Shown in pieces: positions 1 through 9,206 of a DNA stretch of 9,206 nucleotides. The stretch comes from a virus (lineage: Duplodnaviria; Heunggongvirae; Uroviricota; Caudoviricetes), in the IMG/VR virus record IMGVR_UViG_2534681940_000023, positions 1 through 9,206 of that record, one strand, 5' to 3'. Within the stretch, counting starts at the first letter, position 1, and each line of letters begins with the position of its first letter. A program made the position numbers and the translations under genes. The notes under the pieces were generated by a model, which had not been told where the DNA came from, searched no databases, and saw only the letters and a program-made list of their open reading frames with translations.

Positions 1-108
1 AGGACACGCCCCTGCATAAACAGGGGCATCAGCTCTGAACCTGGCCTGAACAATACGATCCCCATACGCGGGGCAATTTCAGGGGTCAGTAGTGCTCTCA
101 CGGTCACC

Positions 109-918
109 TCAATGAACGGTATCGAGCAGCTTTAACAGCTCAGGGAATCGGGATTCGAAGAAATGCGGCTGCGTCTCGCGCGGATTTGCGGGACTGGTGA
201 TGTTCTTGCCGAACATGCAGCCTTTCGCTGTCAGCGACCAGAATTTTTTGATGTTGTTAATCGCGGTACGGCTGTATCGTTCGCGCTGCTCGACGATCCC
301 CAGCTTCACCATCTGGTGATATGCCTGATTAGCTGTCAGGCGGATACCATACTGCTTCAGCAGTGCACTCAGTGACAGCGTGGGACGGCTTGAGCCATCA
401 GGCGCGTCAGCAGGAGCATCAATGGCATAGCGCGGTGCCAGATTCGGTAAGCCAACAGCCTCCTGGAGTTTCTGACAGGCACCAAGCACTGAAGAGTTAG
501 ACAGGTTTAACTCCCGGCGCATAAAGTCCAGCAGAATCACGCCAGCCTGCATCTTGTCAGCAGCCTGCCCGGATAATTTTTCCGGTGCGCTGGTTACCAT
601 ATCGAAAGTACGGATCACCTTCAGATGGAATGACGGGCTGATCCACATTGCATAGGCATACACCAGTTCCTTGCAGACATACGTTCCCCGTTCATTTCCC
701 CCATGAATCACACTCACCGGGTCAACACCCAAATTCTGGGTGTTGGTCAATTCATGAACAAGCTCAGCAGTCTGTTGGCTGGAAAGAAACTTTCCTGGCT
801 CCTTGGTTCTGGCATTTGCACCAGATGCTACTGCTGCGCGATGCAGATCGTTCAGGCTGTAACGCCCATAAGCATCACGACGAACTTCAATACCATCAAT
901 GACCATCAGATTATTCAT
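109..918 (-). CDS. KilA-N domain protein with antirepressor-like C-terminal half (269 aa)
   Basis: Track ORF 109..1020 begins at a TTG inside rusA, so I trimmed it to the ATG at 918-916, which follows GAGGAG (minus strand ...gatcaagaggagaaacgaagtATG). The N-terminal part (YSLNDLHRAA...GTYVCKELVYAYAMWISPSFHLKVIRTFD) fits the KilA-N pattern. The C-terminal half resembles phage antirepressor KilAC-type regions. Stop is TGA at 111-109. Confidence 0.8.
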   Translation of the reverse strand: MNNLMVIDGIEVRRDAYGRYSLNDLHRAAVASGANARTKEPGKFLSSQQTAELVHELTNTQNLGVDPVSVIHGGNERGTYVCKELVYAYAMWISPSFHLKVIRTFDMVTSAPEKLSGQAADKMQAGVILLDFMRRELNLSNSSVLGACQKLQEAVGLPNLAPRYAIDAPADAPDGSSRPTLSLSALLKQYGIRLTANQAYHQMVKLGIVEQRERYSRTAINNIKKFWSLTAKGCMFGKNITSPANPRETQPHFFESRFPELLKLLDTVH

Positions 919-937
919 ACTTCGTTTCTCCTCTTGA

Positions 938-1327
938 TCAGGCGGCTGCACCCGCCGTTTTCTCGTACTTACTGATAGTGATCTCGACCTTCCCTCCCGG
1001 GATAACCGGTCCCCACTCAACCAGCATTCTTTTCACCTGACTGTCGTCTTCCCACACACCCGCATGGGTCAGGGCGTCAAACAGCGCCTTGTTATAGTTG
1101 TCCAGATCGCGGATCCGGTTATCCGGCGGAAACAACACGATCTCCACTGAAGCAGGTGCCGACGTTGGTTTCGGCAGACGACGTAACTGCTCAACTATTG
1201 CTGCACACGCCGCGCTCTGGAATTTGCGCCCCGCCGCGCTTATCAGGCTCTTACCTGCAAACGCCCCTTTGTTGGGGTGTCGCCAGTACGTGTTCACGCT
1301 GGGCGGAAAAGGCAGGATCAGCTTCAT
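938..1327 (-). CDS. rusA: RusA-family Holliday junction resolvase (129 aa)
   Basis: MKLILPFPPSVNTYWRH...RIRDLDNYNKALFDALTHAGVWEDDSQV... matches the RusA layout (PPS-N-Y-R N-terminus, DLDN acidic motif, DD-Q-V). Its ATG overlaps the upstream stop as ATGA (1324-1327). The nin-region position next to a methylase is typical of lambdoid phages. Confidence 0.9.
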   Translation of the reverse strand: MKLILPFPPSVNTYWRHPNKGAFAGKSLISAAGRKFQSAACAAIVEQLRRLPKPTSAPASVEIVLFPPDNRIRDLDNYNKALFDALTHAGVWEDDSQVKRMLVEWGPVIPGGKVEITISKYEKTAGAAA

Positions 1328-1650
1328 ACTTTCAGGCCCCTCTCATGTAACCAGTGGGTTGCACGCAGCCTTGCGTTTTCCTCACCGGCAAGCAGTGCGC
1401 GGATAATCCCGACCGCCTCGCTGTCGTCGTCCTTCACCGCGGTATGAAGCGTTATCCCCCGGGCCACGCCACGCTTTATCGTGATGACGCCTTTTTTCTC
1501 CAGTGCGCGAAGATGCTCCACCGCTGCATTCACCGAACGGTATCCCAGCATGGTTGCCACCTCCTGATTGGTTGGCGGGAAGCCACGTTCTTTCTGATAA
1601 GAAATCAGCATATCCAACACCTGCTGCTGGCATTGAGTTAACGTCGTCAT
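1324..1650 (-). CDS. LexA N-terminal DNA-binding-domain-only protein (108 aa, no S24 peptidase domain)
   Basis: By-eye alignment to the E. coli LexA winged-helix domain: LexA [34 protein letters not shown] versus here PPTNQEVATMLGYRSVNAAVEHLRALEKKGVITI. The ORF ends about 35 residues later, so there is no Ala-Gly site and no Ser/Lys protease domain. ATGA overlaps occur at both ends (1647-1650 and 1324-1327). SD AGGGAG lies about 8 nt upstream. Confidence 0.8.
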   Translation of the reverse strand: MTTLTQCQQQVLDMLISYQKERGFPPTNQEVATMLGYRSVNAAVEHLRALEKKGVITIKRGVARGITLHTAVKDDDSEAVGIIRALLAGEENARLRATHWLHERGLKV

Positions 1651-2300
1651 GCCGCCATCTCCCTTACCAGTTTTTCTGCCTGCTGGCGAACCTGCGCCAG
1701 AAAGGCCTCACCACATGCCTCAAGTTCATCGCGCCCGATGTAGCTGATTGCCGGTCCCTTCCAGGTCTTGTCGAAAACAGCAATAGCACCAGCGAAGAAA
1801 GCGCCTGTCGGCACCTGCTTCTCATCCTTCGGGATAAACCAGGCAGGCAGTTCAAAACCAATACGCCCGCGAATAAAAGCAATATGATCTGCATCTTCCG
1901 GCCACCACACTTCGCTGGTGGCAGCTTTGATCAGGAAAACATAGCGCCCGCCTTTATCACGCATGGCACTGGCATGCTTCATGATGTAACGCATGCCGGT
2001 GATGTATTGCCCCTCATGCTGACTGGCGCGGCTGTATGGGGGATTACCAAAGGCAGCACCTTTAAGCTCCGCAAGACGTTCTGACCAGTCATGCGCCAGC
2101 GCGTTGTCTTCCGCCGTGTAATACGCGGCACATTTGGCGTTATCACCGTCAGTGAACAGATCCAGAACAAACGGACCAAACAAGGTGTTAATTCCCCAGA
2201 AAATGTTGTCCGGCGTGCGCCACTGATCGCCCACTTCCTTCAGTTCATGGGCTGGTTTGTTCCGCAGTTCTACCAGCGCCTGGCAATATTTATTACTCAT
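1647..2300 (-). CDS. Phage-type DNA N6-adenine methyltransferase (217 aa)
   Basis: It has the DQWRTP motif near the N-terminus and the catalytic FGNPPYS (NPPY) motif, as in the phage Dam methyltransferase family (YfdM-like). The start ATG at 2300 overlaps the upstream stop as TAATG. The stop overlaps the next start as ATGA. Confidence 0.85.
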   Translation of the reverse strand: MSNKYCQALVELRNKPAHELKEVGDQWRTPDNIFWGINTLFGPFVLDLFTDGDNAKCAAYYTAEDNALAHDWSERLAELKGAAFGNPPYSRASQHEGQYITGMRYIMKHASAMRDKGGRYVFLIKAATSEVWWPEDADHIAFIRGRIGFELPAWFIPKDEKQVPTGAFFAGAIAVFDKTWKGPAISYIGRDELEACGEAFLAQVRQQAEKLVREMAA

Positions 2301-2392
2301 TAAGCCCCCACGTAAAAAGCATCCGCAATGTCTCCGGAAGTACAGCCCGGATGGGCTTCAATGAATTTCTGAACGTCATTTAACAGACTCAT
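2300..2392 (-). CDS. 30-aa ORF (MSLLNDVQKFIEAHPGCTSGDIADAFYVGA), possibly the N-terminal fragment of a winged-helix protein
   Basis: It is below the ORF-track size cutoff and I found it by reading the minus strand. The ATG at 2392-2390 follows GGGGGTGATC and lies 2 nt after the replication-gene stop. Its TAA overlaps the methylase ATG (TAATG). The peptide resembles the first helices of small wHTH proteins but stops after 30 residues. Confidence 0.3.
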   Translation of the reverse strand: MSLLNDVQKFIEAHPGCTSGDIADAFYVGA

Positions 2393-2394
2393 GA

Positions 2395-3375
2395 TCACCC
2401 CCTGAATCCTGCCGGGATCTGGCTGTAGTCCACGTTGTCGTAACTGGCTTTGAAGTACGGGTCTTCACGTTTTTCTATGTGCGTGCTGACGGACGGCGAT
2501 AAGCGCAGGGAAAGCTCATCCCATTTTTCCCGCAACTTCGACGGGCTGAGCACGTTACGGCACCAGAACGGATCGCGGCTGACGCGGCTGTACATCTCGC
2601 AGATTTGTTTGTGAGTACGACCATCCTGCACACACATCAGGCGAATTTCGTTTGCCCATGCTGTCCAGTTCGGTTCTTTGGGACGAACCACCTCGCCGTC
2701 ACATTCGGCGGCCTGCTCGTACAGGGCGATGATTTTTTTCCAGAGCCACTGTGCGCAGGTCAAATCATCCTGCGTTCCCCACTGGCGCTTTTTAGGGCTG
2801 AATACAACCGCATCAGGATGGCGAGTTAAAAACTCCTGTTCAGCCGTTTGCGTGTCCGGTTGCGAAGCGTCCGGACGAGAAGAGGTTTTATTCTCTGTAG
2901 TAATCTCTGTTGTATTCTCTGTAAGATCGAAATTGGTTTTCCCTTCTCCGCGGCGAGGGGTTTCCCGTGTCCGCTGTGAAGGCTTTCCCTCCTCCGCGAA
3001 ATTGGGTTTTACAGTTTCCCGAAAACGGGTTTCCCCATTTCGGGAAAACTGATTGTTTTCATTGATAAGTTCATTAAGGCGCTCACAATCTATACGGTAG
3101 AACATTTTGTGCTCAAGACGCTTGTTGGTTTCAACCAAAATGCCTCTGGACACAAGATGCTTACGCGCTACAGCCTGTTGTTCAAATGTAAGTCCGGTTT
3201 CGTGTTGTATCTCTTCACGCGTTTTATGTACGCCTTCCGCTGCATGTGCTTTATCCTGCCAGTAAAAAATCTGACCAAAGAAAATAACAGCGTGCGGACT
3301 TCCCATGTATTTAACGAGCCCAGGGTAATAAGCAACCGGATGCCCAAAATCGAGCAGAAGATCAGACGGACGCAT
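2395..3375 (-). CDS. Replication initiator / replisome organizer, lambda O-like (YfdO-like C-terminus), 326 aa
   Basis: Track ORF starts at GTG 3381. The ATG at 3375-3373 has a better SD (GGGAGGTGGCT ATG). It has an N-terminal wHTH-like region, a low-complexity middle encoded by DNA iterons, and a conserved C-terminal region (WGTQDDLTCAQWLWKKI...PFWCRNVLSPSKLREKWDEL). Its position after the cII-like and Rha genes is as expected for a lambdoid O gene. Confidence 0.8.
   Translation of the reverse strand: MRPSDLLLDFGHPVAYYPGLVKYMGSPHAVIFFGQIFYWQDKAHAAEGVHKTREEIQHETGLTFEQQAVARKHLVSRGILVETNKRLEHKMFYRIDCERLNELINENNQFSRNGETRFRETVKPNFAEEGKPSQRTRETPRRGEGKTNFDLTENTTEITTENKTSSRPDASQPDTQTAEQEFLTRHPDAVVFSPKKRQWGTQDDLTCAQWLWKKIIALYEQAAECDGEVVRPKEPNWTAWANEIRLMCVQDGRTHKQICEMYSRVSRDPFWCRNVLSPSKLREKWDELSLRLSPSVSTHIEKREDPYFKASYDNVDYSQIPAGFRG
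2929..3050. repeat. Iteron array, putative phage origin of replication inside the O-like gene
   Basis: TTTCCC-centred units lie at 2938, 2961, 2984 (exactly 23 bp apart), 3015 and 3030, plus an inverted GGGAAA at 3042. Examples are GGTTTTCCCTTCTCCGCG, GGGTTTCCCGTGTCCGC, GGCTTTCCCTCCTCCGCG and TTTCCCGAAAACGGGTTTCCCCATTTCGGGAAAAC. The array is flanked at 2885-2925 by an AT-rich TCTCTGT x3 stretch. This mirrors lambda ori, which has iterons plus an AT-rich region within O. Confidence 0.55.
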
Positions 3376-3595
3376 AGCCACCTCCCAGACGCTTAAACAT
3401 TTTCCCGGACTGAAAAGCCACCAGCGGATAACTCAGGGTATGAGTACGCCCCTGAACCTGACAGACAACCTTCTGGCTTTCTGTGTTGACCAGACAAACC
3501 CGCAGAACGTGACCGTTGCTGGTGGTGAACCACTGCCCCACACGGGGGCAGTGGTTGTATCGGTGATACAGAGAATTCACAACACGACGAATCAT
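3362..3595 (-). CDS. Small phage protein, 77 aa, possibly DUF4222/SH3-like
   Basis: ATG at 3595 follows GGAGGTG and forms an ATGA overlap with the upstream ORF. The 3' end overlaps the O-like start by 14 nt. Its WF..G..LRV...Q.VV...G pattern resembles the 57-aa ORF at 5092-5265. Confidence 0.6.
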   Translation of the reverse strand: MIRRVVNSLYHRYNHCPRVGQWFTTSNGHVLRVCLVNTESQKVVCQVQGRTHTLSYPLVAFQSGKMFKRLGGGYASV

Positions 3596-3786
3596 GGACG
3601 CACCTCCGCCGTTGTGATGTATTTAACCGGGCTGCCTTTCATTGCGATGATTTCACACATCTCCGCTGCTTTACGTTCCGCTGTTTTCCTGGATTTATAG
3701 CGGCGGTGCCAAACAGACGTATCCGTGCGAACTGATACATCGTTTCTGTATTCCGTAGTGGAGATGATGATTTCGTAACTAATCAT
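3592..3786 (-). CDS. Hypothetical small phage protein, 64 aa
   Basis: ATG at 3786 follows a strong SD (AAGGAGGT, about 6 nt spacing). ATGA overlaps occur with Rha upstream (3783-3786) and the 77-aa ORF downstream (3592-3595). I recognise no family. Confidence 0.6.
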
Positions 3787-4346
3787 GGGCGTACCTCCTT
3801 GTCAGAACCATTCAGCCTGGAATCAACAAGTGCAGCACCAAAAACAGCATCACCTACACGGTCGTACAGTTTGCCAGCCAGCGGAGATTCAACAGCCTTA
3901 AGCATGGGATAAAGCTGGCTTCTCCAGATTTGATGGATTTCACGCAAATGCAGGTATACGCCTCTGGCGTTTTGTGCGACAGATGACATCTCAGCCGCAC
4001 CAGCTCCTGATAAGCTCCTCTCCATCTGGTTAAAGGCATTGATGTATGCCTCTTTGAACCGGGCGGCACGCTTGCCAGTGAAGCCCATAGCAAGGAATGC
4101 GAAGCCGTCGCGGGTGATTTGATAGCAGGGAAGTTTGCGAGTACCGCCGTTGGGCTGGCGTACCAAAATTGATGTCTCCGCAAAATTGCGGGCACAAAAC
4201 TCTGGAGAACAATCCAAAATGCGGATCTTTTTCAGAACATCGTCATGACGTTTAGAGAAGAAGTCAGCAACAGCCAAAGAAGATGTAACAGCCTGACCAT
4301 CAACGATGGCAATTTCAGGTTGAGAGAGAGTTGGGAAAGTAGTCAT
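3783..4346 (-). CDS. Rha-family phage regulatory protein (187 aa from the internal ATG)
   Basis: [41 protein letters not shown]...[35 protein letters not shown] is a typical Rha (pRha) domain, and Rha proteins start about 20 aa before the V-TS--VA--F-K-H--VL motif. The ATG at 4346-4344 has only a weak GGGG SD. The frame stays open upstream to 5444, so the true start is unresolved. Confidence 0.75.
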
Positions 4347-4638
4347 GGTGACAGCCCCTATGTTGAATTCAAAGAACTCACCACATGGGACGCCAATCAC
4401 AGAGGTGGTGAGACGTACAGGGTTGGCGTAACCGGTCAACATAGAACCCGGCGCATCTTGCGATGCCCCTGCACGCCCCACCATAATTTGGACGTAGCAA
4501 TGCTCATGATACGAAAAGACCGCATGAGCGCGGTTATGCTCTATATTGAATTCCAGGACGCCAATCCCGACACCCGCTTTATAAGGTGCCTGAACAGTGT
4601 AACGTCCCGAAATTGAGGAATCAATGTTTTGATAAAAT
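4347..4638 (-). other. Coding-like segment in frame with Rha but lacking its own canonical start
   Basis: Translation (...[88 protein letters not shown]) shows a strong G-at-codon-position-1 bias typical of real coding sequence. There is no ATG or SD between the ProQ-like stop (4639) and this segment. In-frame GTG codons at 4712 and 4709 have no SD. Confidence 0.3.
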
Positions 4639-5031
4639 TCAGCGATTAGACGCTTCTTTTCTACCCATATTAACTTTGAACAAGAGCTCCATACGACGAG
4701 TCCAGACACCACGTTCTTTGAGTTGTGCTCTGGCTTCTTCGCGCTCAGATACGGAAGTTCTGACAATACGATTTCCAGCCAGATTGCGGCGATATTCTCC
4801 AAACGCGACTGACTGAAGGTATGCAGCGGAGCTTTTGTACTGATAGATGGCTCTTCGAAGGCTGTTTTTATATTCCTTAGGTATATGTCCGAGATCGGCA
4901 AAAAGCTCATGAACGATATCGTGAACAAGCGGAACAACTTTGTATGGAATAACAAAGAAGCTTTCTGGATAGCGTTCAGCCAATACTTTAATGATTTCTT
5001 TATTTGCAAGATGCCTTGCTTTTCTTCCCAT
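4639..5031 (-). CDS. ProQ/FinO-domain RNA-binding protein (130 aa)
   Basis: ATG at 5031 has SD GGAGAA about 8 nt upstream. By-eye alignment to the E. coli ProQ N-terminal FinO-like domain: SSKEVIAFLAERFPHCF / [17 protein letters not shown]; LRSALRLYTSSWRYL / [15 protein letters not shown]; GATRVDLDGN / [10 protein letters not shown]; ARKQLEE / ARAQLKE. The gene is visibly more AT-rich than its neighbours. Confidence 0.8.
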
Positions 5032-5061
5032 ATACCATTCTCCATTACTCCAGATATCAGA

Positions 5062-5089
5062 ATGATATATCCAGGTTCAAGCAGTTCAA
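5062..5089 (-). promoter_or_regulatory. Candidate internal sigma70 promoter ahead of the ProQ/FinO-like gene
   Basis: The minus strand reads GCTTGAACTGCTTGAACC (tandem TTGAAC). The first TTGAAC (5089-5084) is followed by a 16-nt spacer and TATCAT (5067-5062). This lies just after the stop of the 57-aa ORF and about 30 nt before the ProQ-like ATG. It is a motif match only. Confidence 0.3.
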
Positions 5090-5091
5090 GC

Positions 5092-5265
5092 TTATGCTGG
5101 TGCTTCGCACTCAACAAAATCACGACGAAACAACCACAGCGGGCTGAAGCATTCATGCGGATAACCATCACGCAGGTAAATAACCCGCTGTGTTTCCGGT
5201 TCCCAACGAATGACTCTGACGGGCACTCCGTAGTGATCTTTGAACCAGCGGTTAACTTGTTGCAA
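5092..5265 (-). CDS. 57-aa TTG-initiated small protein, DUF4222-like ([57 protein letters not shown])
   Basis: It is absent from the ORF track because it is under 60 aa. TTG at 5265-5263 lies 8 nt after GAAGGAGA (revcomp of 5273-5280), and the frame is closed by a TGA just upstream. TAA is at 5094-5092. The V-YLRDGY---C--P--F---F pattern matches my recollection of the DUF4222 small phage protein family. It is in the same frame as the ProQ-like gene. Confidence 0.5.
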
Positions 5266-5444
5266 AGGACTGTCTCCTTCTGCCGGTTGAAATCACCCAC
5301 AGCCCACTCTGCAAATCTGTGGGTTACAATTTCCCTGTCACCTGGTACATTCACTGCATAGCAATACTCCACCTTCGCTTTTCCACCCGGTACAGGAAGC
5401 GCAATCAGTTGCGAGCGACGGTAGTGTGTTGTTAAACTGTTCAT
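5266..5444 (-). CDS. Start-proximal part of an ORF ([57 protein letters not shown]...); 3' end unresolved
   Basis: ATG at 5444-5442 follows GGAGAA and overlaps the CII-like stop as ATGA, so initiation is well supported. The first 60 or so codons look coding. There is no in-frame stop until 3783, so the end given here is only where a better-supported gene in another frame begins. Confidence 0.4.
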
Positions 5445-6082
5445 GCGTTAGTTTCTCCACAACCAGAAGCAATCGACGCCACGACGCCCGGAGCTGCACA
5501 CTCGCGGGCGTTACTCTTTTCCGGCGCACAAAAAACACGAAATAACAGTGTTAAATGCTCCTTCCACTTCGCCATTACTTGGTAGCTGTTCTCTTCGATT
5601 TGCTCACGCTCAGCCTGGTCAATAACTCCATCAGCAGTTGCCTTGCGTAAGTACTGGGAATGCTTGCCAATCCATTCTATTGACTCCATCAGCCGCTGAT
5701 TAATGTCACCATTGTCAATGTCATCAATGACCACCAGCGGCACAAACACCCCATTACTACGACGGGCTATTGCATCCGTTACATGCCTGGTACCACTGGC
5801 ATCCTGTAAAACCATGGCCCACTCAAGTGGAAAAATTTGATCCCCACCGCTACGCAGTCTGTTATGCAATTGATCTTTTGCTGGGGTGATATCATCAGAT
5901 TTATACAAACCAAGAATTTCTGCTGCTTCCTCATAGCCATGAGGTAAATCAGCAATCGTTCTTCGTATTGCTGCCACCAGCCATGCTGGTTGCTTATCAA
6001 CTTTCCATTCAGGTTCTTTACCCACGTTTAAGCCCTCATATCTGTGGTTTCTGTAAATCGATTTATCCATTAGATTTTTCAT
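5441..6082 (-). CDS. CII-like lysogeny regulator (phage 186 CII/CP76- or YdaT-type), about 213 aa
   Basis: It has the layout of CP76/YdaT-type CII analogues: an HTH-like region ([12 protein letters not shown]...), then ...[23 protein letters not shown]... and ...[28 protein letters not shown]. It lies immediately downstream of cro and overlaps it. The start is uncertain: ATG 6082 (MKNLMDKS), ATG 6070, or the track's GTG 6139. None has a strong SD. Confidence 0.7.
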
Positions 6083-6263
6083 AAAGCTCAGGTTTAAATG
6101 GCAACCGTCCGCAAGTTCTATATGCAGCCTCTGCTGCACGTCCTTTTGGAATTAACTGGCCAGGACGGTTTCGCCACTGATAAACGGCTTCAGTTGTTAT
6201 GCCGAAAAAAGCAGCAACTTTCTCAATGCTGCCGAAGTAGCTTTCGATATCGTCAGTCGTCAT
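6063..6263 (-). CDS. Cro/YdaS-type HTH regulator (66 aa)
   Basis: ATG at 6263 follows SD GGAGGG (revcomp of 6267-6272). The HTH IEKVAAFFGITTEAVYQWRNRPGQLIPKGRAAEAAYRTCGRL resembles YdaS/Cro family proteins. It is divergent from the repressor gene. Confidence 0.85.
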   Translation of the reverse strand: MTTDDIESYFGSIEKVAAFFGITTEAVYQWRNRPGQLIPKGRAAEAAYRTCGRLPFKPELYEKSNG

Positions 6264-6274
6264 ATGCCCTCCAA

Positions 6275-6339
6275 ACTAAGTTTTATTAGATGTTAATTAT
6301 CAATCTATCTTAGGTCAATAAAAACTAAGATTACTTAGT
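6275..6339. promoter_or_regulatory. OR-like operator cluster (three 16-bp sites)
   Basis: The sites are 6275-6290 ACTAAGTTTTATTAGA, 6299-6314 ATCAATCTATCTTAGG (weak left half) and 6324-6339 ACTAAGATTACTTAGT (perfect palindrome). Centre spacing is 24-25 bp, as in lambda OR1-3. The same ACTAAG-N4-NTTAGN motif recurs at 7016-7031 and 7052-7067. Confidence 0.6.
6290..6318 (-). promoter_or_regulatory. PR-like promoter for the cro operon
   Basis: The minus strand has TTGACC (6318-6313), a 17-nt spacer, and TAACAT (6295-6290), about 30 nt upstream of the cro ATG. The flanking operator sites overlap both the -35 and the -10/+1. Confidence 0.5.
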
Positions 6340-6360
6340 AATTAAAGAAATGGTGCTCCT

Positions 6361-6987
6361 ATGGAAACGGTTGGTCAGCGTATAAAAGCTCTGAGAAGAG
6401 TTACCAGAACGTCCCAGAAAGAATTGGGTAAATTTTGTGGAGTAAGTGACGTTGCTGTGGGGTACTGGGAGAAAGACATCAATGTCCCTGGTGGGGAAGC
6501 ACTTTCAAAATTAGCGAAGTTCTTCAATACGTCAATAGATTACATTCTTTATGGTGCGGAGTTTGAAGGCAAACTCGTCACAAACATGCGCAGAGTTCCT
6601 GTAATCTCGTGGGTTCAGGCTGGGCAGTTTACTGAGTGCAGGACAGCAGAAGTGTTTAGTGAAGTAGACAAGTGGGTAGATACATCATTAAAGATTGGTG
6701 ATAACTCATTTGCATTGGAGGTTAAAGGCGACTCCATGACTAACCCTAACGGCCTCCCAACAATACCAGAAGGCGCAACAGTGATTGTAGATCCTGATGC
6801 AGAACCCCGGCATGGAAAAATAGTCATCGCTAGACTTGATGGAACAAACGAAGCCACAGTAAAAAAATTAGTTATCGATGGCCCTCAAAAGTTTTTAGTG
6901 CCATTAAATCCCCGGTACCCCAACATTCCGATCAATGGTAATTGCCTCATCATTGGTGTAGTCAAAGGAGTTCAATACGAACTCTAG
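6361..6987 (+). CDS. CI-type prophage repressor, XRE HTH plus S24 (LexA-like) autopeptidase domain (208 aa)
   Basis: N-terminal HTH is QKELGKFCGVSDVAVGYWEKD. A cleavage-site-like VQAGQF is present. The catalytic Ser lies in KGDSMTNP and the Lys in ATVKKLV. It is divergent from cro, and a terminator follows directly. Confidence 0.9.
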   Translation: METVGQRIKALRRVTRTSQKELGKFCGVSDVAVGYWEKDINVPGGEALSKLAKFFNTSIDYILYGAEFEGKLVTNMRRVPVISWVQAGQFTECRTAEVFSEVDKWVDTSLKIGDNSFALEVKGDSMTNPNGLPTIPEGATVIVDPDAEPRHGKIVIARLDGTNEATVKKLVIDGPQKFLVPLNPRYPNIPINGNCLIIGVVKGVQYEL

Positions 6988-7005
6988 CCCCCCTTTTCTC
7001 TAACC

Positions 7006-7042
7006 AAAACACCGAACTAAGAAAAGTTTGGTGTTTTCTCTT
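7006..7042 (+). terminator. Intrinsic terminator after the repressor gene
   Basis: The stem is AAAACACCGAAC (7006-7017) paired with GTTTGGTGTTTT (7026-7037). That is 12 pairs including one G-U, with an 8-nt loop. The 3' arm ends in TTTT followed by CTCTT. It lies 19 nt after the cI stop. Confidence 0.6.
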
Positions 7043-7069
7043 GCCATCAAAACTAAGTTAAGTTAGATT
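7041..7069 (+). promoter_or_regulatory. PL-like promoter with embedded operator
   Basis: TTGCCA (7041-7046), a 17-nt spacer, and TAGATT (7064-7069). The operator-like ACTAAGTTAAGTTAGA (7052-7067) fills the spacer. A second site, ACTAAGAAAAGTTTGG (7016-7031), lies in the terminator loop and 3' arm. Confidence 0.45.
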
Positions 7070-7164
7070 TTATATCAAAGATAACGAACAGGCAGGACGC
7101 CCACGAAGTAGCCGACGGTGGCGTATGAATGACCGGATGATTCGCGCATGGCAGGAGAGTGAAT

Positions 7165-7533
7165 ATGGATGGCAGTATCGACAACCAACGAGATGCCTGG
7201 CTTGTGGTGATTGAAGCAGCAAAAACTGCATTAAGCCAAGTTGAAAGCAGTAACTACAGAACAGTTAAACAAATGGCTTTGGGCTCTATTATCTATGCCT
7301 TTGAAAGGCTGGACTTTGATTTTGAAGCAACGAGTATTCTGTCAGAACAACATGAAAAAATGAATAGAGAAGACGCCGCAGCCTATATCGGCGTAGAAGC
7401 GCAAACCTTAGCTAATTGGGCTAGCACAGGAAAAGTTCGAATACCTTTTTTAAAAATCGGTAGAAAGGTTATTTACCTAAAAAGTGATCTTGATGCCTAT
7501 CTTGCCTCATCGAAGGCAAATACCACCAAGTAG
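7165..7533 (+). CDS. First early-left gene: protein with C-terminal excisionase/MerR-type HTH (122 aa)
   Basis: Track start GTG 7159 is only 1 nt from AGGAG (7153-7157). The ATG at 7165 is 7 nt away, so I prefer it. The C-terminal REDAAAYIGVEAQTLANWASTGKVRIPFLKIGRKVIYLKSDLDAYL fits the excisionase-family HTH. I do not recognise the N-terminal 70 or so aa. Confidence 0.7.
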   Translation: MDGSIDNQRDAWLVVIEAAKTALSQVESSNYRTVKQMALGSIIYAFERLDFDFEATSILSEQHEKMNREDAAAYIGVEAQTLANWASTGKVRIPFLKIGRKVIYLKSDLDAYLASSKANTTK

Positions 7534-7741
7534 CTCACGTACCTACCACCTCGCCTGATGTGGCTAAAAGCAGGCACATAACAGCTAAGTATTTTCAACC
7601 AGAGAGAATCCTTAGCGTTGTGGTGAATGCGGCTCAGCGCACGCGGGTTAAGGTTGAGACTGACAGTCGACCTTCTGTGGATACCCACCCGCCTGGTGTG
7701 CAACCTTCGCCAGGCACCGGGAGGCACCCGGCACCACAACA

Positions 7742-7799
7742 GCCACTGCTTTGGCGGTACCAGTTTGTACACTTGCTTCCGGCTGGTACCGCTCTTTTT
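7742..7799 (+). ncRNA. DicF-like sRNA candidate (5' end approximate)
   Basis: The core TTTGGCGGTACCAGTTTGTAC (7750-7770) closely matches my recollection of K-12 DicF, TTTGGCGGTATCAGTTTTAC. It has a similar architecture, with the GGCGG arm opening a hairpin that ends in a U-tract. Like dicF in Qin, it sits in the repressor-controlled operon opposite cro. The 5' part differs from K-12 DicF. Confidence 0.45.
7753..7799 (+). terminator. Intrinsic terminator (3' end of the DicF-like RNA) inside the early-left operon
   Basis: GGCGGTACCAG (7753-7763) pairs with CTGGTACCGCT (7783-7793). That is 10 Watson-Crick pairs plus one G-U, with a 19-nt loop, followed by C and TTTTT (7795-7799). Confidence 0.6.
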
Positions 7800-7893
7800 A
7801 CAAAACAGAGAAGAGCATCACCGGACGACGGGCTCATAACCCAATCCACCCGGGCGGCTGCCACCGCAGGTGCTCTTCTCTGTTTTGTGGAGA
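7795..7893 (+). other. Long RNA hairpin: 17-bp perfect inverted repeat, extendable to about 25 pairs
   Basis: CAAAACAGAGAAGAGCA (7801-7817) is the exact reverse complement of TGCTCTTCTCTGTTTTG (7871-7887). G-U and A-U pairs extend it outward to 7795/7893 and inward to 7819/7869. The roughly 50-nt apical region can form small CCGG/CCGG, GGG/CCC and GCGG/CCGC helices. Confidence 0.6.
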
Positions 7894-7936
7894 AACCAAC
7901 CGACCTTGCAGGGTCGATATGATGAGGAGCAGCAAA

Positions 7937-8299
7937 ATGGCTAGCGAACGCAGTACTGATGTGCAGGCATTTATCGGGGAGCTGGACGGCGGCGTATTTG
8001 AAACCAAAATCGGCGCTGTTCTCAGTGAAGTCGCTTCAGGTGTGATGAACACGAAAACCAAAGGGAAGGTCTCGCTCAACCTGGAAATCGAACCGTTTGA
8101 TGAGAACCGTGTGAAAATAAAACACAAACTCTCATATGTTCGTCCGACTAACCGCGGGAAAATTTCCGAAGAAGACACCACCGAAACGCCGATGTATGTC
8201 AATCGCGGTGGTCGCCTGACTATTCTGCAGGAAGACCAGGGACAATTACTGACTCTTGCCGGTGAACCTGACGGAAAACTCCGCGCAGCAGGTCATTAA
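7937..8299 (+). CDS. yfdP: YfdP-like prophage protein (120 aa)
   Basis: Track ORF 7751..8299 is trimmed to the ATG at 7937, which lies 7 nt after GAGGAG (7924-7929). The upstream part of the track ORF runs through the hairpin region. The 120-aa product MASERSTDVQAFIGELDGG... matches the length of K-12 CPS-53 YfdP and, as far as I recall, its sequence. It is followed by a yfdQ-like gene as in K-12. The symbol is from memory. Confidence 0.75.
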   Translation: MASERSTDVQAFIGELDGGVFETKIGAVLSEVASGVMNTKTKGKVSLNLEIEPFDENRVKIKHKLSYVRPTNRGKISEEDTTETPMYVNRGGRLTILQEDQGQLLTLAGEPDGKLRAAGH

Positions 8300-8364
8300 T
8301 ATCGTTCTTAATTAACTGATTATTTATCTCATCACTGAATATCCTTATATAGTGAGGACTTATT

Positions 8365-9189
8365 ATGTCTCAGAACTTAGACGCAACCGCAATTAATCAA
8401 ATCCATGCCCTTATTTCTGCTCAGGGTGTTAATGAAATTATTAGTAAGATTGGTGCCGATGCTGTGGCATTGCCTGAGAATTTCCGCATTCATGATCTGG
8501 AAAAATTTAATTTAAATCGCTTCCGTTTCCGTGGTGCGCTTTCCACTGCCAGCATCGATGACTTTACCCGTTATTCTAAAGATCTTGCAGATGAAGGCAC
8601 CCGCTGCTTTATCGATGCCGATAATATGCGTGCCGTCAGTGTGCTTAACCTGGGTACTATTGATGAACCAGGTCACGCAGATAACACCGCCACTCTCAAA
8701 CTGAAAAAGACAGCACCGTTCTCTGCTCTGTTGTCTGTTAATGGCGAGCGTAACTCCCAAAAGTCACTGGCAGAATGGATTGAAGACTGGGCCGACTACC
8801 TTGTGGGCTTTGATGCTAATGGTGACGCCATTCAGGCAACCAAAGCGGCTGCGGCGATCCGTAAAATCACAATTGAAGCGAACCAGACCGCTGATTTTGA
8901 AGACAATGACTTCAGCGGCAAACGCTCCCTGATGGAGTCTGTCGAAGCGAAGACCAAAGACATTATGCCAGTGGCATTTGAATTTAAATGCGTTCCGTTT
9001 GAAGGCCTGAAAGAACGTCCGTTTAAATTACGCCTCAGCATTATCACTGGCGATCGTCCTGTACTGGTTCTGCGCATTATTCAGCTGGAAGCGGTGCAGG
9101 AAGAAATGGCTAACGAATTTCGTGATCTGCTTGTTGAGAAATTTAAAGACAGCAAAGTAGAAACCTTTATTGGTACTTTCACCGCCTGA
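8365..9189 (+). CDS. yfdQ: YfdQ-like DUF2303 prophage protein (274 aa)
   Basis: The ATG at 8365 follows GTGAGGA. The 274-aa product has the same length as K-12 YfdQ and is in the same gene order after yfdP. Codon usage is clean and no competing ORFs are present. The family assignment is from memory. Confidence 0.85.
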
Positions 9190-9206
9190 TTTCATTACTG
9201 CAAATG

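Follow-up and report, generated by a model that had tools for sequence, protein, structure and literature searches.

The 9,206-nt stretch of a tailed-phage genome analyzed here (IMG/VR record IMGVR_UViG_2534681940_000023, positions 1 to 9,206; hereafter the window) contains a 403-nt gap at 7534-7936 on the + strand, between the gene for an HTH_17 protein and a YfdP-like open reading frame (ORF). We find that this gap is a real, conserved, non-coding feature, a chain of folded RNA modules on the + strand, and that it is an operon-embedded relative of the prophage small RNA (sRNA) loci STnc100/PasD and DicF, whose wider family is poorly described. Its core unit comprises a 124-nt pseudoknotted domain, here called MB (7617-7740), a short linker, and an intrinsic terminator (7753-7799), which is the architecture of the STnc100/PasD sRNAs and of the 190-nt "long DicF"; it differs from STnc100/PasD in being promoterless and fed by the early-left promoter PL. 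With moderate confidence, and by analogy with these loci, we read the locus as an STnc100/long-DicF-type sRNA unit that would arise through termination together with RNase III/RNase E processing and would also attenuate the downstream early-left genes.

A conserved chain of folded RNA modules

The initial annotation had described the gap as untranslated, GC-rich, and hairpin-dense, and all three properties were borne out. GC content is 0.577 at 7600-7899, compared with 0.41-0.44 in the immunity region and flanking genes, and the + strand of the gap has a minimum free energy (MFE) of -171.9 kcal/mol (z -7.1; 0/100 shuffles fold equally well), while the - strand folds with z -5.4. The mechanically called ORFs (7560-7922 and 7627-7839 on the + strand; 7497-7772 and 7634-7864 on the - strand) have no Pfam match and are not kept in phages SfV and ST64B, because indels, one of them 8 nt long, shift the frames, so that ORF frame and extent differ there. 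We give next to no credence to the idea that one or several small proteins are made from the region, such as those of the 70-aa ORF at 7627-7839 or the 120-aa ORF at 7560-7922. Several deposited phage records do annotate "hypothetical proteins" under the homologous stretch, and those on the reverse strand of mEp460 look doubtful; against a coding role stand not only the missing Pfam matches and the unkept frames but also substitutions that are compensatory for RNA helices, and RefSeq annotates nothing there in most E. coli genomes, although the gap sequence is matched in 2,809 of the 5,426 complete ones. ARAGORN found no tRNA or tmRNA in the window, ST64B, or phiES15, and the Rfam tRNA model found none in the window; a tRNA or tRNA-like gene was rejected, as neither tool found a cloverleaf and only a 17-nt anticodon-arm look-alike (7826-7842) is present. 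A permissive-threshold Rfam scan of the gap yielded STnc100 as the only meaningful match, those to miRNAs and the hairpin ribozyme being chance matches to a long stem.

The modules of the gap, all on the + strand, are as follows.

7546-7583, +: 5' flank with a small predicted hairpin (about 7553-7575), common to SfV and phiES15
7584-7616, +: LH1, a 12-bp hairpin in MFE folds, abutting the MB closing stem
7617-7740, +: MB, 124-nt pseudoknotted multi-helix domain, "type A" of the STnc100/PasD superfamily
7617-7625 with 7732-7740, +: MB closing stem P1, 9 bp
7629-7633 with 7639-7644, +: MB helix P2, with A7641 bulged and a UNNGC pentaloop
7645-7647 with 7688-7690, +: MB helix P3, covariation judged by eye
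7650-7656 with 7701-7707, +: MB pseudoknot AAGGUUG/CAACCUU, its 3' strand in the loop of the P4 hairpin
7691-7696 with 7710-7715, +: MB helix P4
7717-7721 with 7727-7731, +: MB helix P5
7741-7752, +: linker, at the seed position between MB and terminator
7753-7799, +: DicF-like intrinsic terminator, stem 7753-7765 with 7781-7793, U-tract 7795-7799
7800-7888, +: LH2, a 90-nt long hairpin and candidate RNase III site
7800-7819 with 7869-7888, +: LH2 outer stem
7821-7827 with 7847-7853, +: LH2 inner stem, with an apical hairpin at 7830-7842 and a side hairpin at 7854-7867
7826-7842, +: LH2 apical hairpin CGACGGGCUCAUAACCC, look-alike of the initiator tRNA-Met anticodon arm
7889-7896, +: tail GGAGAAAC after LH2, which follows nearly all PL-type LH copies
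7901-7916, +: small predicted hairpin before the ribosome-binding site
7924-7929, +: Shine-Dalgarno (SD) sequence GAGGAG, which with the ATG at 7937 forms the ribosome-binding site of the YfdP-like ORF

The covariation analysis establishes MB as a genuine structured RNA. Across 46 sequences, which were gathered with conserved motifs as bait and are related to one another, P1, P2, and P5 together are 95.4% paired, and sliding the partners by 1-3 columns lowers this to 32-49%; 131 alignment cells are changed on both sides where 51 are expected, and the covariation score is 0.404 against 0.152 for shuffled alignments, with 0/500 shuffles as high. P2 is 99% paired across these sequences, with GC to CG swaps. 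The pseudoknot forms between the P4 apical loop and the 6-9 nt after P3, and we collected 30 distinct pair sequences for it; in a test that seeks the best match and takes non-cognate partners as its control, cognate strands share a mean of 7.0 complementary nt compared with 4.5 for non-cognate ones, and at least 6 nt are complementary in 88% versus 21%. The invariance of some MB motifs arises partly by construction, because these motifs served as search patterns. Exact-pattern scans of viral contigs, one with a 3' motif and one with a 5' motif, returned at least 120 matches each, and the combined pattern found 103 stretches in species-representative genomes, essentially all of them Enterobacterales.

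Four of the six helices listed in the initial annotation stand as described: GCCUGG/CCAGGC at 7691-7715, CCGGG/CCCGG at 7717-7731, the terminator at 7753-7799 (13 bp, -21.2 kcal/mol, followed by CUUUUU; its loop is too long for a simple terminator scan), and the long hairpin at 7795-7893 (25 contiguous pairs, -51.4 kcal/mol, z -7.5). The register given for the 7628-7641 helix was wrong, the covarying helix being P2, and the 8-pair stem at 7650-7674 does occur in this sequence but competes with the conserved pseudoknot and is not itself a conserved pairing. At 7712-7731 the apparent tandem repeat of 10 nt is nothing more than a helix whose 3' arm abuts the next hairpin. The broader proposal of a multi-part structured RNA locus is upheld, and the helices of MB, its pseudoknot, and LH2 are conserved and covary in related and unrelated phages.

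The terminator is followed directly by LH2 in all PL-type loci sampled. In an alignment of 18 LH2 family sequences, 89.1% of positions are paired compared with 38-52% when slid, 14 pairs are changed on both sides, and the covariation score is 0.176 versus 0.093; the core motif occurs in at least 120 viral contigs. The outer stem can be extended further by pairing of the U-tract 7795-7799 with 7889-7893. The apical hairpin matches E. coli tRNA-Met in 16 of its 17 nucleotides, a score reached by 0/500 shuffles; the mimicry is imperfect, however, because the loop varies among LH2 relatives (CUCAUAA, CUCAUUA, CUCAUUC, UUCAUAU).

Resemblance of the terminator to DicF, as initially noted, is real at the local level: its 5' arm reads UUUGGCGGUACCAGUUU compared with UUUGGCGGUAUCAGUUU in DicF, with an alignment score reached by 0/500 shuffles, and this alignment spans only UUUGGCGGUAyCAGUUU-UAC, the sequence upstream being different. 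The linker shows two forms. SfV-type phages, ST64B, phiES15, and a further viral contig (L092) conserve UGCUGUGUGWAGUC before unrelated terminator hairpins, which is the pattern expected of an sRNA seed, whereas the window, mEp460, and the Stx2 phages examined carry a different linker, 8 nt shorter, AGCCACUGCUU.

Other parts of the chain also change sequence while keeping a hairpin: ST64B has a different hairpin (GAUAAGAGUU/AACUCUUAUC) at the position of LH1, and relatives have another (GGCGGUGGCAGCCGCC) at the position of 7901-7916. In phages mEp460 and cdtI and in many Stx2 phages, similarity to the window is confined to 7724-7936 (97-98% identity); these phages have another MB sub-type upstream, and the joint is at 7724. 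The motif GUUGUG(G/U) recurs at the joints of LH, MB, and tail, and GUUGUGG itself stands at 7617-7623 and 7883-7889; this recurrence suggests that the modules are shuffled by recombination at conserved joints.

MB belongs to a wider family with several genomic contexts

The Rfam STnc100 model (RF02076) aligns end to end (model positions 1-206) at 7599-7801, terminator included, with 36.3 bits and E 4.1e-5. The window shares with STnc100 the core helices (closing stem, 5' hairpin, and the CCGGG-AGGCA-CCCGG hairpin), the junction motifs, and an intrinsic terminator 10-40 nt after the domain (13-bp stem and CUUUUU), while a stand-alone gene with its own promoter is absent from it. We distinguish three sub-types, namely STnc100 proper, type A, and type B. 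Type A comprises the window, SfV, ST64B, phiES15, the third copy of the P7 ban operon, and the Qin prophage of E. coli K-12; type B comprises mEp460 and Stx2a_1447. In a joint alignment of type A and STnc100, 95.4% of positions pair and the two sub-types differ by compensatory changes, and the covariance model that we built (R1) matches the independent type-B element of mEp460 with 27.7 bits (E 8e-5). In Stx2a_1447 and mEp460 (contig positions 4000-4380) an apparently non-coding leader of ~700 nt separates cI from the yfdP-like gene, and in the Stx2a_1447 leader (5790-5880) the T-arm-like sequences GGTTCAATTCC and GTTCGATTC lie upstream of a type-B MB.

We then surveyed the genomic context of 162 distinct family members among the matches listed (85 type A, 64 STnc100-type), counting promoters with a second heuristic because the first one was too strict. 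Type A copies have promoters in 0/85 cases, an SD and start codon less than 100 nt downstream in 62/85, and a terminator, as in the window, in 17/85. STnc100-type copies are followed by a terminator in 46/64 cases, and 13/64 have a consensus promoter ending ~3 nt before P1; those with terminators have no gene within 100 nt. In copies that precede an ORF, the closing stem is extended by a median of 8 bp, whereas in window-type and STnc100-type copies it is unextended. The window MB groups by architecture with the sRNA-like class, because it has a short P1, a linker, and a terminator.

Expression and Hfq dependence have been shown for members of this family. PasD is a stable, Hfq-dependent sRNA with mRNA partners in enteropathogenic E. 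coli (EPEC) (PMC8550237). E. coli O157:H7 EDL933 carries 11 STnc100 copies, one of which was detected by Northern blot, and several have ribosome-footprint-to-RNA ratios as high as those of mRNAs (PMC5331693, Table 1), which could reflect either ribosome association through the invariant GGGAGG in P5 or a nuclease-resistant structure.

The family tends to sit beside phage tRNA genes, as seen in one viral contig and in P7. The contig carries, at 2265-3380 and 4009-4160, four tandem STnc100 copies (77-132 bits) beside two tRNA genes. The P7 ban operon (positions 1920-2630 of the P7 stretch analyzed) has one significant MB copy, at 2505-2628, between tRNA genes and terB. By eye we also saw MB-like stretches at ~1930-2075 (unscored) and 2161-2310 (9.6 bits, not significant). 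An LH hairpin lies at 2088-2175; the order in P1-like phages is tRNA, LH, MB. At 2313-2399 of P7, ARAGORN calls an unannotated tRNA-Ser(UGA)-like gene, which scores 46.6 bits, just below threshold, with the Rfam tRNA-Sec model.

An unannotated MB copy in the dicBF operon of E. coli K-12

In E. coli K-12 MG1655 an unannotated MB copy lies in the Qin prophage between the dicF terminator and dicB, at 2953-3084 of a stretch (L234) whose positions 2943-3092 correspond to about 1,649,442-1,649,591 of the chromosome. Its score is 34.4 bits under the STnc100 model and 96.5 bits under R1, whose seed included a near-identical sequence, and it is closed by a 21-bp stem, L234 2943-2963 with 3072-3092 (1,649,442-1,649,462 with 1,649,571-1,649,591). 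The published 3' end of 72-nt DicF, an RNase III product, falls by its length from the annotated start at L234 2954, in the middle of this stem. The 190-nt DicF, whose 5' end is made by RNase III (bioRxiv 10.1101/2023.04.14.536235), would by its length begin at ~L234 2746, in the 3' arm of a ~22-bp long hairpin and just upstream of a multi-hairpin domain closed by GUUGUGGC/GCUGCAAC. That the window harbors a processed RNA locus, as initially proposed, is plausible by analogy, given this coincidence of homologous K-12 dicBF modules with reported RNase III and RNase E sites.

The early-left operon and its leader

The gap sits in a repressor-controlled early-left operon, as the initial annotation had placed it, because the promoter and operator context and the SfV layout through xis and int both say so. 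The window is an immunity region of the SfV/mEp460-like lambdoid type, Escherichia virus mEp460_4F5 being 99.5% identical across the gap, and SfV has an identical gene layout that continues to xis and int at the end of its operon. The flanking features are the following.

6361-6987, +: S24/HTH repressor gene, upstream of PL
7006-7037, +: terminator hairpin after the repressor gene and before PL
7041-7069, +: PL-type sigma-70 promoter TTGCCA-17-TAGATT, overlapping the operator
7085-7145, +: conserved leader RNA (...AGGCAGGACGCCCACGAAGUAGCC...GCRUAUGAA...GAUGA), ~60 nt, directly downstream of PL
7165-7533, +: first PL gene, encoding an HTH_17 protein (Pfam PF12728, E 3.6e-9)
7937-8299, +: YfdP-like ORF, without a Pfam match
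8365-9189, +: DUF2303 gene

PL at 7041-7069 is the sole promoter-like site within 6900-8400; we found no internal promoter for a small RNA and no promoter-like site at 7070-7620. The operator-like repeat at PL, AAACTAAGTT..TTAG, recurs in the cro/cI intergenic region at 6265-6295 and 6314-6344. In the yfdO-yfdP spacer of the K-12 prophage CPS-53 the element is absent, and only the final ~25 nt before yfdP are in common. Elsewhere in the window, the rightward operon has C4 antisense RNA and isrK as a tandem pair at 4401-4589 on the - strand (80.1 and 54.1 bits, respectively). A mechanical 553-aa ORF (3783-5444) encloses them; its Pfam Ash match (aa 282-376) coincides precisely with the two RNA genes, and a Rha antirepressor domain comes next. 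The match to the Ash "protein" may be a translation of RNA genes.

The gap occupies the place of nutL and N in lambda, and the initial annotation had raised a cis-acting antitermination role. No N-like gene is indeed recognizable, as the first PL gene encodes HTH_17 and the next ORF has no Pfam match. We consider it very unlikely that the gap is a processive put- or nut-like antiterminator that replaces lambda N/nutL and lets PL transcription pass the terminator to xis and int. In its favor, besides the missing N, the terminator at 7753-7799 must somehow be passed, and boxA-like sequences occur in the 3' arm of LH2 (GGUGCUCUUCUC, 7871-7884) and before two MB-like copies of P7 (UGCUCUUAC). Against it, MB lies ~540 nt from PL, behind a gene, and its order relative to the terminator is not fixed, as it comes after the terminator in Qin; many copies are stand-alone, tandem, or directly before an ORF; HK022 putL, which we located and compared by eye, has no meaningful similarity; and the boxA-like strand is paired in a 20-bp stem and absent from Qin-type copies. 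Aligned to both strands of the HK022 immunity region, the leader, MB, and the terminator with LH2 all scored at noise level. We rejected an HK022 put identity for the gap (no similarity, a 124-nt MB, the distance from PL) and a lambda-type nut site with N, since no N-like gene is present and GGUGCUCUUCUC is buried in the LH2 stem. The related boxA/NusB-E idea was dropped, because the boxA-like strand, where present, is invariably base-paired, and Qin-type copies do without it. The boxA-like sequences, among them UGCUCUUU in ST64B and UGCUCUUAC in P7 (~1927-1937 and 2497-2507), sit on the 3' arm of hairpins that precede MB; the P7 sequence is one that we take to equal the lambda nutR boxA.

A better candidate than the gap for a put- or nut-like role, or else a 5'-end element, is the leader at 7085-7145. 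Its identity is 80-95% across phages infecting Salmonella, Shigella, Pectobacterium, Yersinia, Pantoea, Aeromonas, and Klebsiella, a T5-like Providencia phage, and a Drulisvirus, so that its carriers are very diverse, T5-like and T7-like phages among them; in temperate phages of Salmonella, Shigella, Pectobacterium, Yersinia, and Aeromonas it follows repressor genes. Its 5-bp helix shows compensatory changes in 5/5 pairs, and it has no Rfam match and no similarity to HK022 putL.

A proposed processed small-RNA unit and its rivals

In the STnc100/long-DicF-type reading, PL transcripts would run through the HTH gene into MB after induction or infection, and a large share would stop at the terminator at 7753-7799. 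After trimming by RNase III and/or RNase E, ~190 nt of structured RNA would persist as a stable species; a 3' piece the size of DicF (50-60 nt) may also arise, with the terminator hairpin, the usual Hfq-binding end, at its terminus. Read-through transcripts would form the 25-bp LH2 stem right behind the terminator, and a cut of LH2 by RNase III would separate the small RNA from the mRNA of the YfdP-like ORF, DUF2303, and later genes, whose early-left expression the terminator would thereby attenuate. The efficiency of termination, the RNase III/E processing, Hfq binding, and a trans-acting target at this locus are what we infer. For a DicF-type biogenesis the operon context and the terminator are present, and the cuts are presumed by analogy with K-12.

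Several observations weigh against this reading. The STnc100 match is significant but does not reach the gathering score of 47. The DicF resemblance does not extend beyond the local alignment: in a 207-nt search the Rfam DicF model (RF00039) gave only 12.2 bits (E 3.4), well short of its gathering score of 48 and of the 76.7 bits of the K-12 control, and the single-stranded 5' seed of DicF (UUUCUGGUGACG...) is absent. The window also lacks the conserved linker "seed" of SfV, ST64B, and phiES15, and if RNase E cut its short linker, hardly any single-stranded seed would remain. The RNase III cut positions in K-12 are deduced from published RNA lengths, and R1 found no match, at E up to 10, to the structured domain upstream of dicF in K-12, which led us to reject that domain as an MB homologue; hence the parallel by which the 190-nt DicF equals MB plus DicF is architectural and not a demonstrated homology. 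As the window MB has a closing stem of only 9 bp, unextended, the K-12 RNase III evidence does not carry over to it, except by analogy to LH2. Lastly, the elaborate and strongly conserved MB fold exceeds what a role in processing or stability needs.

An unlikely alternative is that MB acts in cis on the adjacent mRNA, either capping and insulating the downstream message through a protected, paired 5' end left by processing or controlling translation of the next gene, with the sRNA as a by-product. It would account for the 62 of 85 distinct type-A copies that lie less than 100 nt upstream of the SD and start codon of varied small early genes (dicB and terB among them), for the 16-21-bp closing stems of ORF-preceding copies, for the invariant SD-like GGGAGG or UGGAGG displayed by P5, and for the high ribosome-footprint ratios of several STnc100 copies in EDL933 (PMC5331693). 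The window MB, however, precedes a terminator and 140 nt more of structure rather than a gene, STnc100-type copies likewise precede terminators, some with promoters of their own, and inspection by eye found no pairing of MB with the downstream SD, nor any alternative pairing of MB with the 7753-7799 hairpin. It is quite unlikely, in our view, that MB represents a new class of fold-dependent RNA, stand-alone or in operons, serving as an aptamer or decoy for a small ligand or for some host factor, for example RNA polymerase, the ribosome, Hfq, ProQ, or an RNase. Its riboswitch-like complexity (a multi-helix junction, a pseudoknot, and variable peripheral inserts), its invariant unpaired nucleotides (AAU, the UNNGC loop, the AGGCA loop), and its tandem arrays, tRNA-gene neighbors, and spread across Enterobacterales speak for such a class; the motif invariance that is partly by construction speaks against it, as does the fact that no ligand, partner, or conserved neighboring protein gene was identified.

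A broader proposal, tentative and on the doubtful side, is that MB and LH together form an unrecognized class of tertiary-folded phage RNA that depends on its fold to bind or decoy a host machine such as the ribosome, RNase III/E, RNA polymerase, or a tRNA-targeting toxin; the ribosome could be engaged through the invariant GGGAGG loop together with the initiator-tRNA-like hairpin. If this were true, enterobacterial phages would use the class as a module, in stand-alone STnc100/PasD genes, in tRNA-side tandem arrays, in the P1/P7 ban operon, and before toxic early genes (dicB, for example), and a single RNA-processing cassette would give rise to both DicF and the STnc100-type sRNAs.

The family connects loci that have been treated as unrelated, namely STnc100/PasD of pathogenic E. 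coli, the K-12 DicF/dicB operon known for cell-division inhibitors, the ban operon of P7, and, in SfV-, ST64B-, and mEp460-like phages as well as the Stx2 phages examined, the early-left operon; they have in common one covarying pseudoknotted RNA domain and a companion long hairpin. The Rfam STnc100 model covers one sub-type only, without the pseudoknot. The K-12 stem 1,649,442-1,649,462/1,649,571-1,649,591 may hold the RNase III sites by which DicF, and probably the dicB message, is shaped, the leader at 7085-7145 may be what carries lambdoid phages without N past early terminators, and the function of the MB family can now be tested in E. coli K-12.

Comparison with known systems

The HK022 antiterminator RNAs putL and putR resemble MB in being structured and in belonging to the early operons of a lambdoid phage that has no N, but put is ~70 nt long with two stem-loops and opens the transcript (PMC9378689). 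MB, in contrast, is 124 nt long, pseudoknotted, and far from PL.

In the lambda nutL-N leader and at the T7 intercistronic sites, RNase III cuts long hairpins of early polycistronic RNA, which separates and tunes the messages. We propose a like role for LH2 and for Qin's extended MB stem, although the window has no boxA/boxB nut site or N gene and LH2 has a conserved three-way apex and the tRNA-Met-like hairpin. The C4 and CI antisense RNAs of P1/P7 and P4 are likewise small structured RNAs excised from phage operon transcripts with their ends paired; C4, however, belongs to a different fold and sequence family and acts through two loop-target pairings, none of which was identified for MB.

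Closer is the dicBF operon of Qin, which is also a repressor-controlled operon of early-left type with HTH or small genes, a structured non-coding stretch, a terminator-ended RNA, and small early genes, and which has the same MB domain and a terminator 5' arm near-identical between DicF and the window. DicF is made there through termination plus processing by RNases III and E. The two differ in that MB follows the DicF terminator in Qin and precedes the terminator in the window, in the MB closing stem (21 bp versus 9 bp), and in the seed, which is unlike the 5' segment of DicF; the window also scores too low with the Rfam DicF model.

STnc100/PasD (PasD1 and PasD2) differs from the window in P2 (CCCCC...GGAGGGG compared with GCGGC...GCACGC), in lying in the late region whereas the window unit is promoterless and in the PL operon, and in an Rfam consensus structure that lacks the pseudoknot found here. 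Both nevertheless have the same core fold, the motifs GGUGAAU, the UNNGC hairpin, and CACCGGGAGGCACCCGGCACC, an end-to-end closing stem, and the order domain, linker, intrinsic terminator over ~190-200 nt, and both are carried by lambdoid prophages of enterobacteria.

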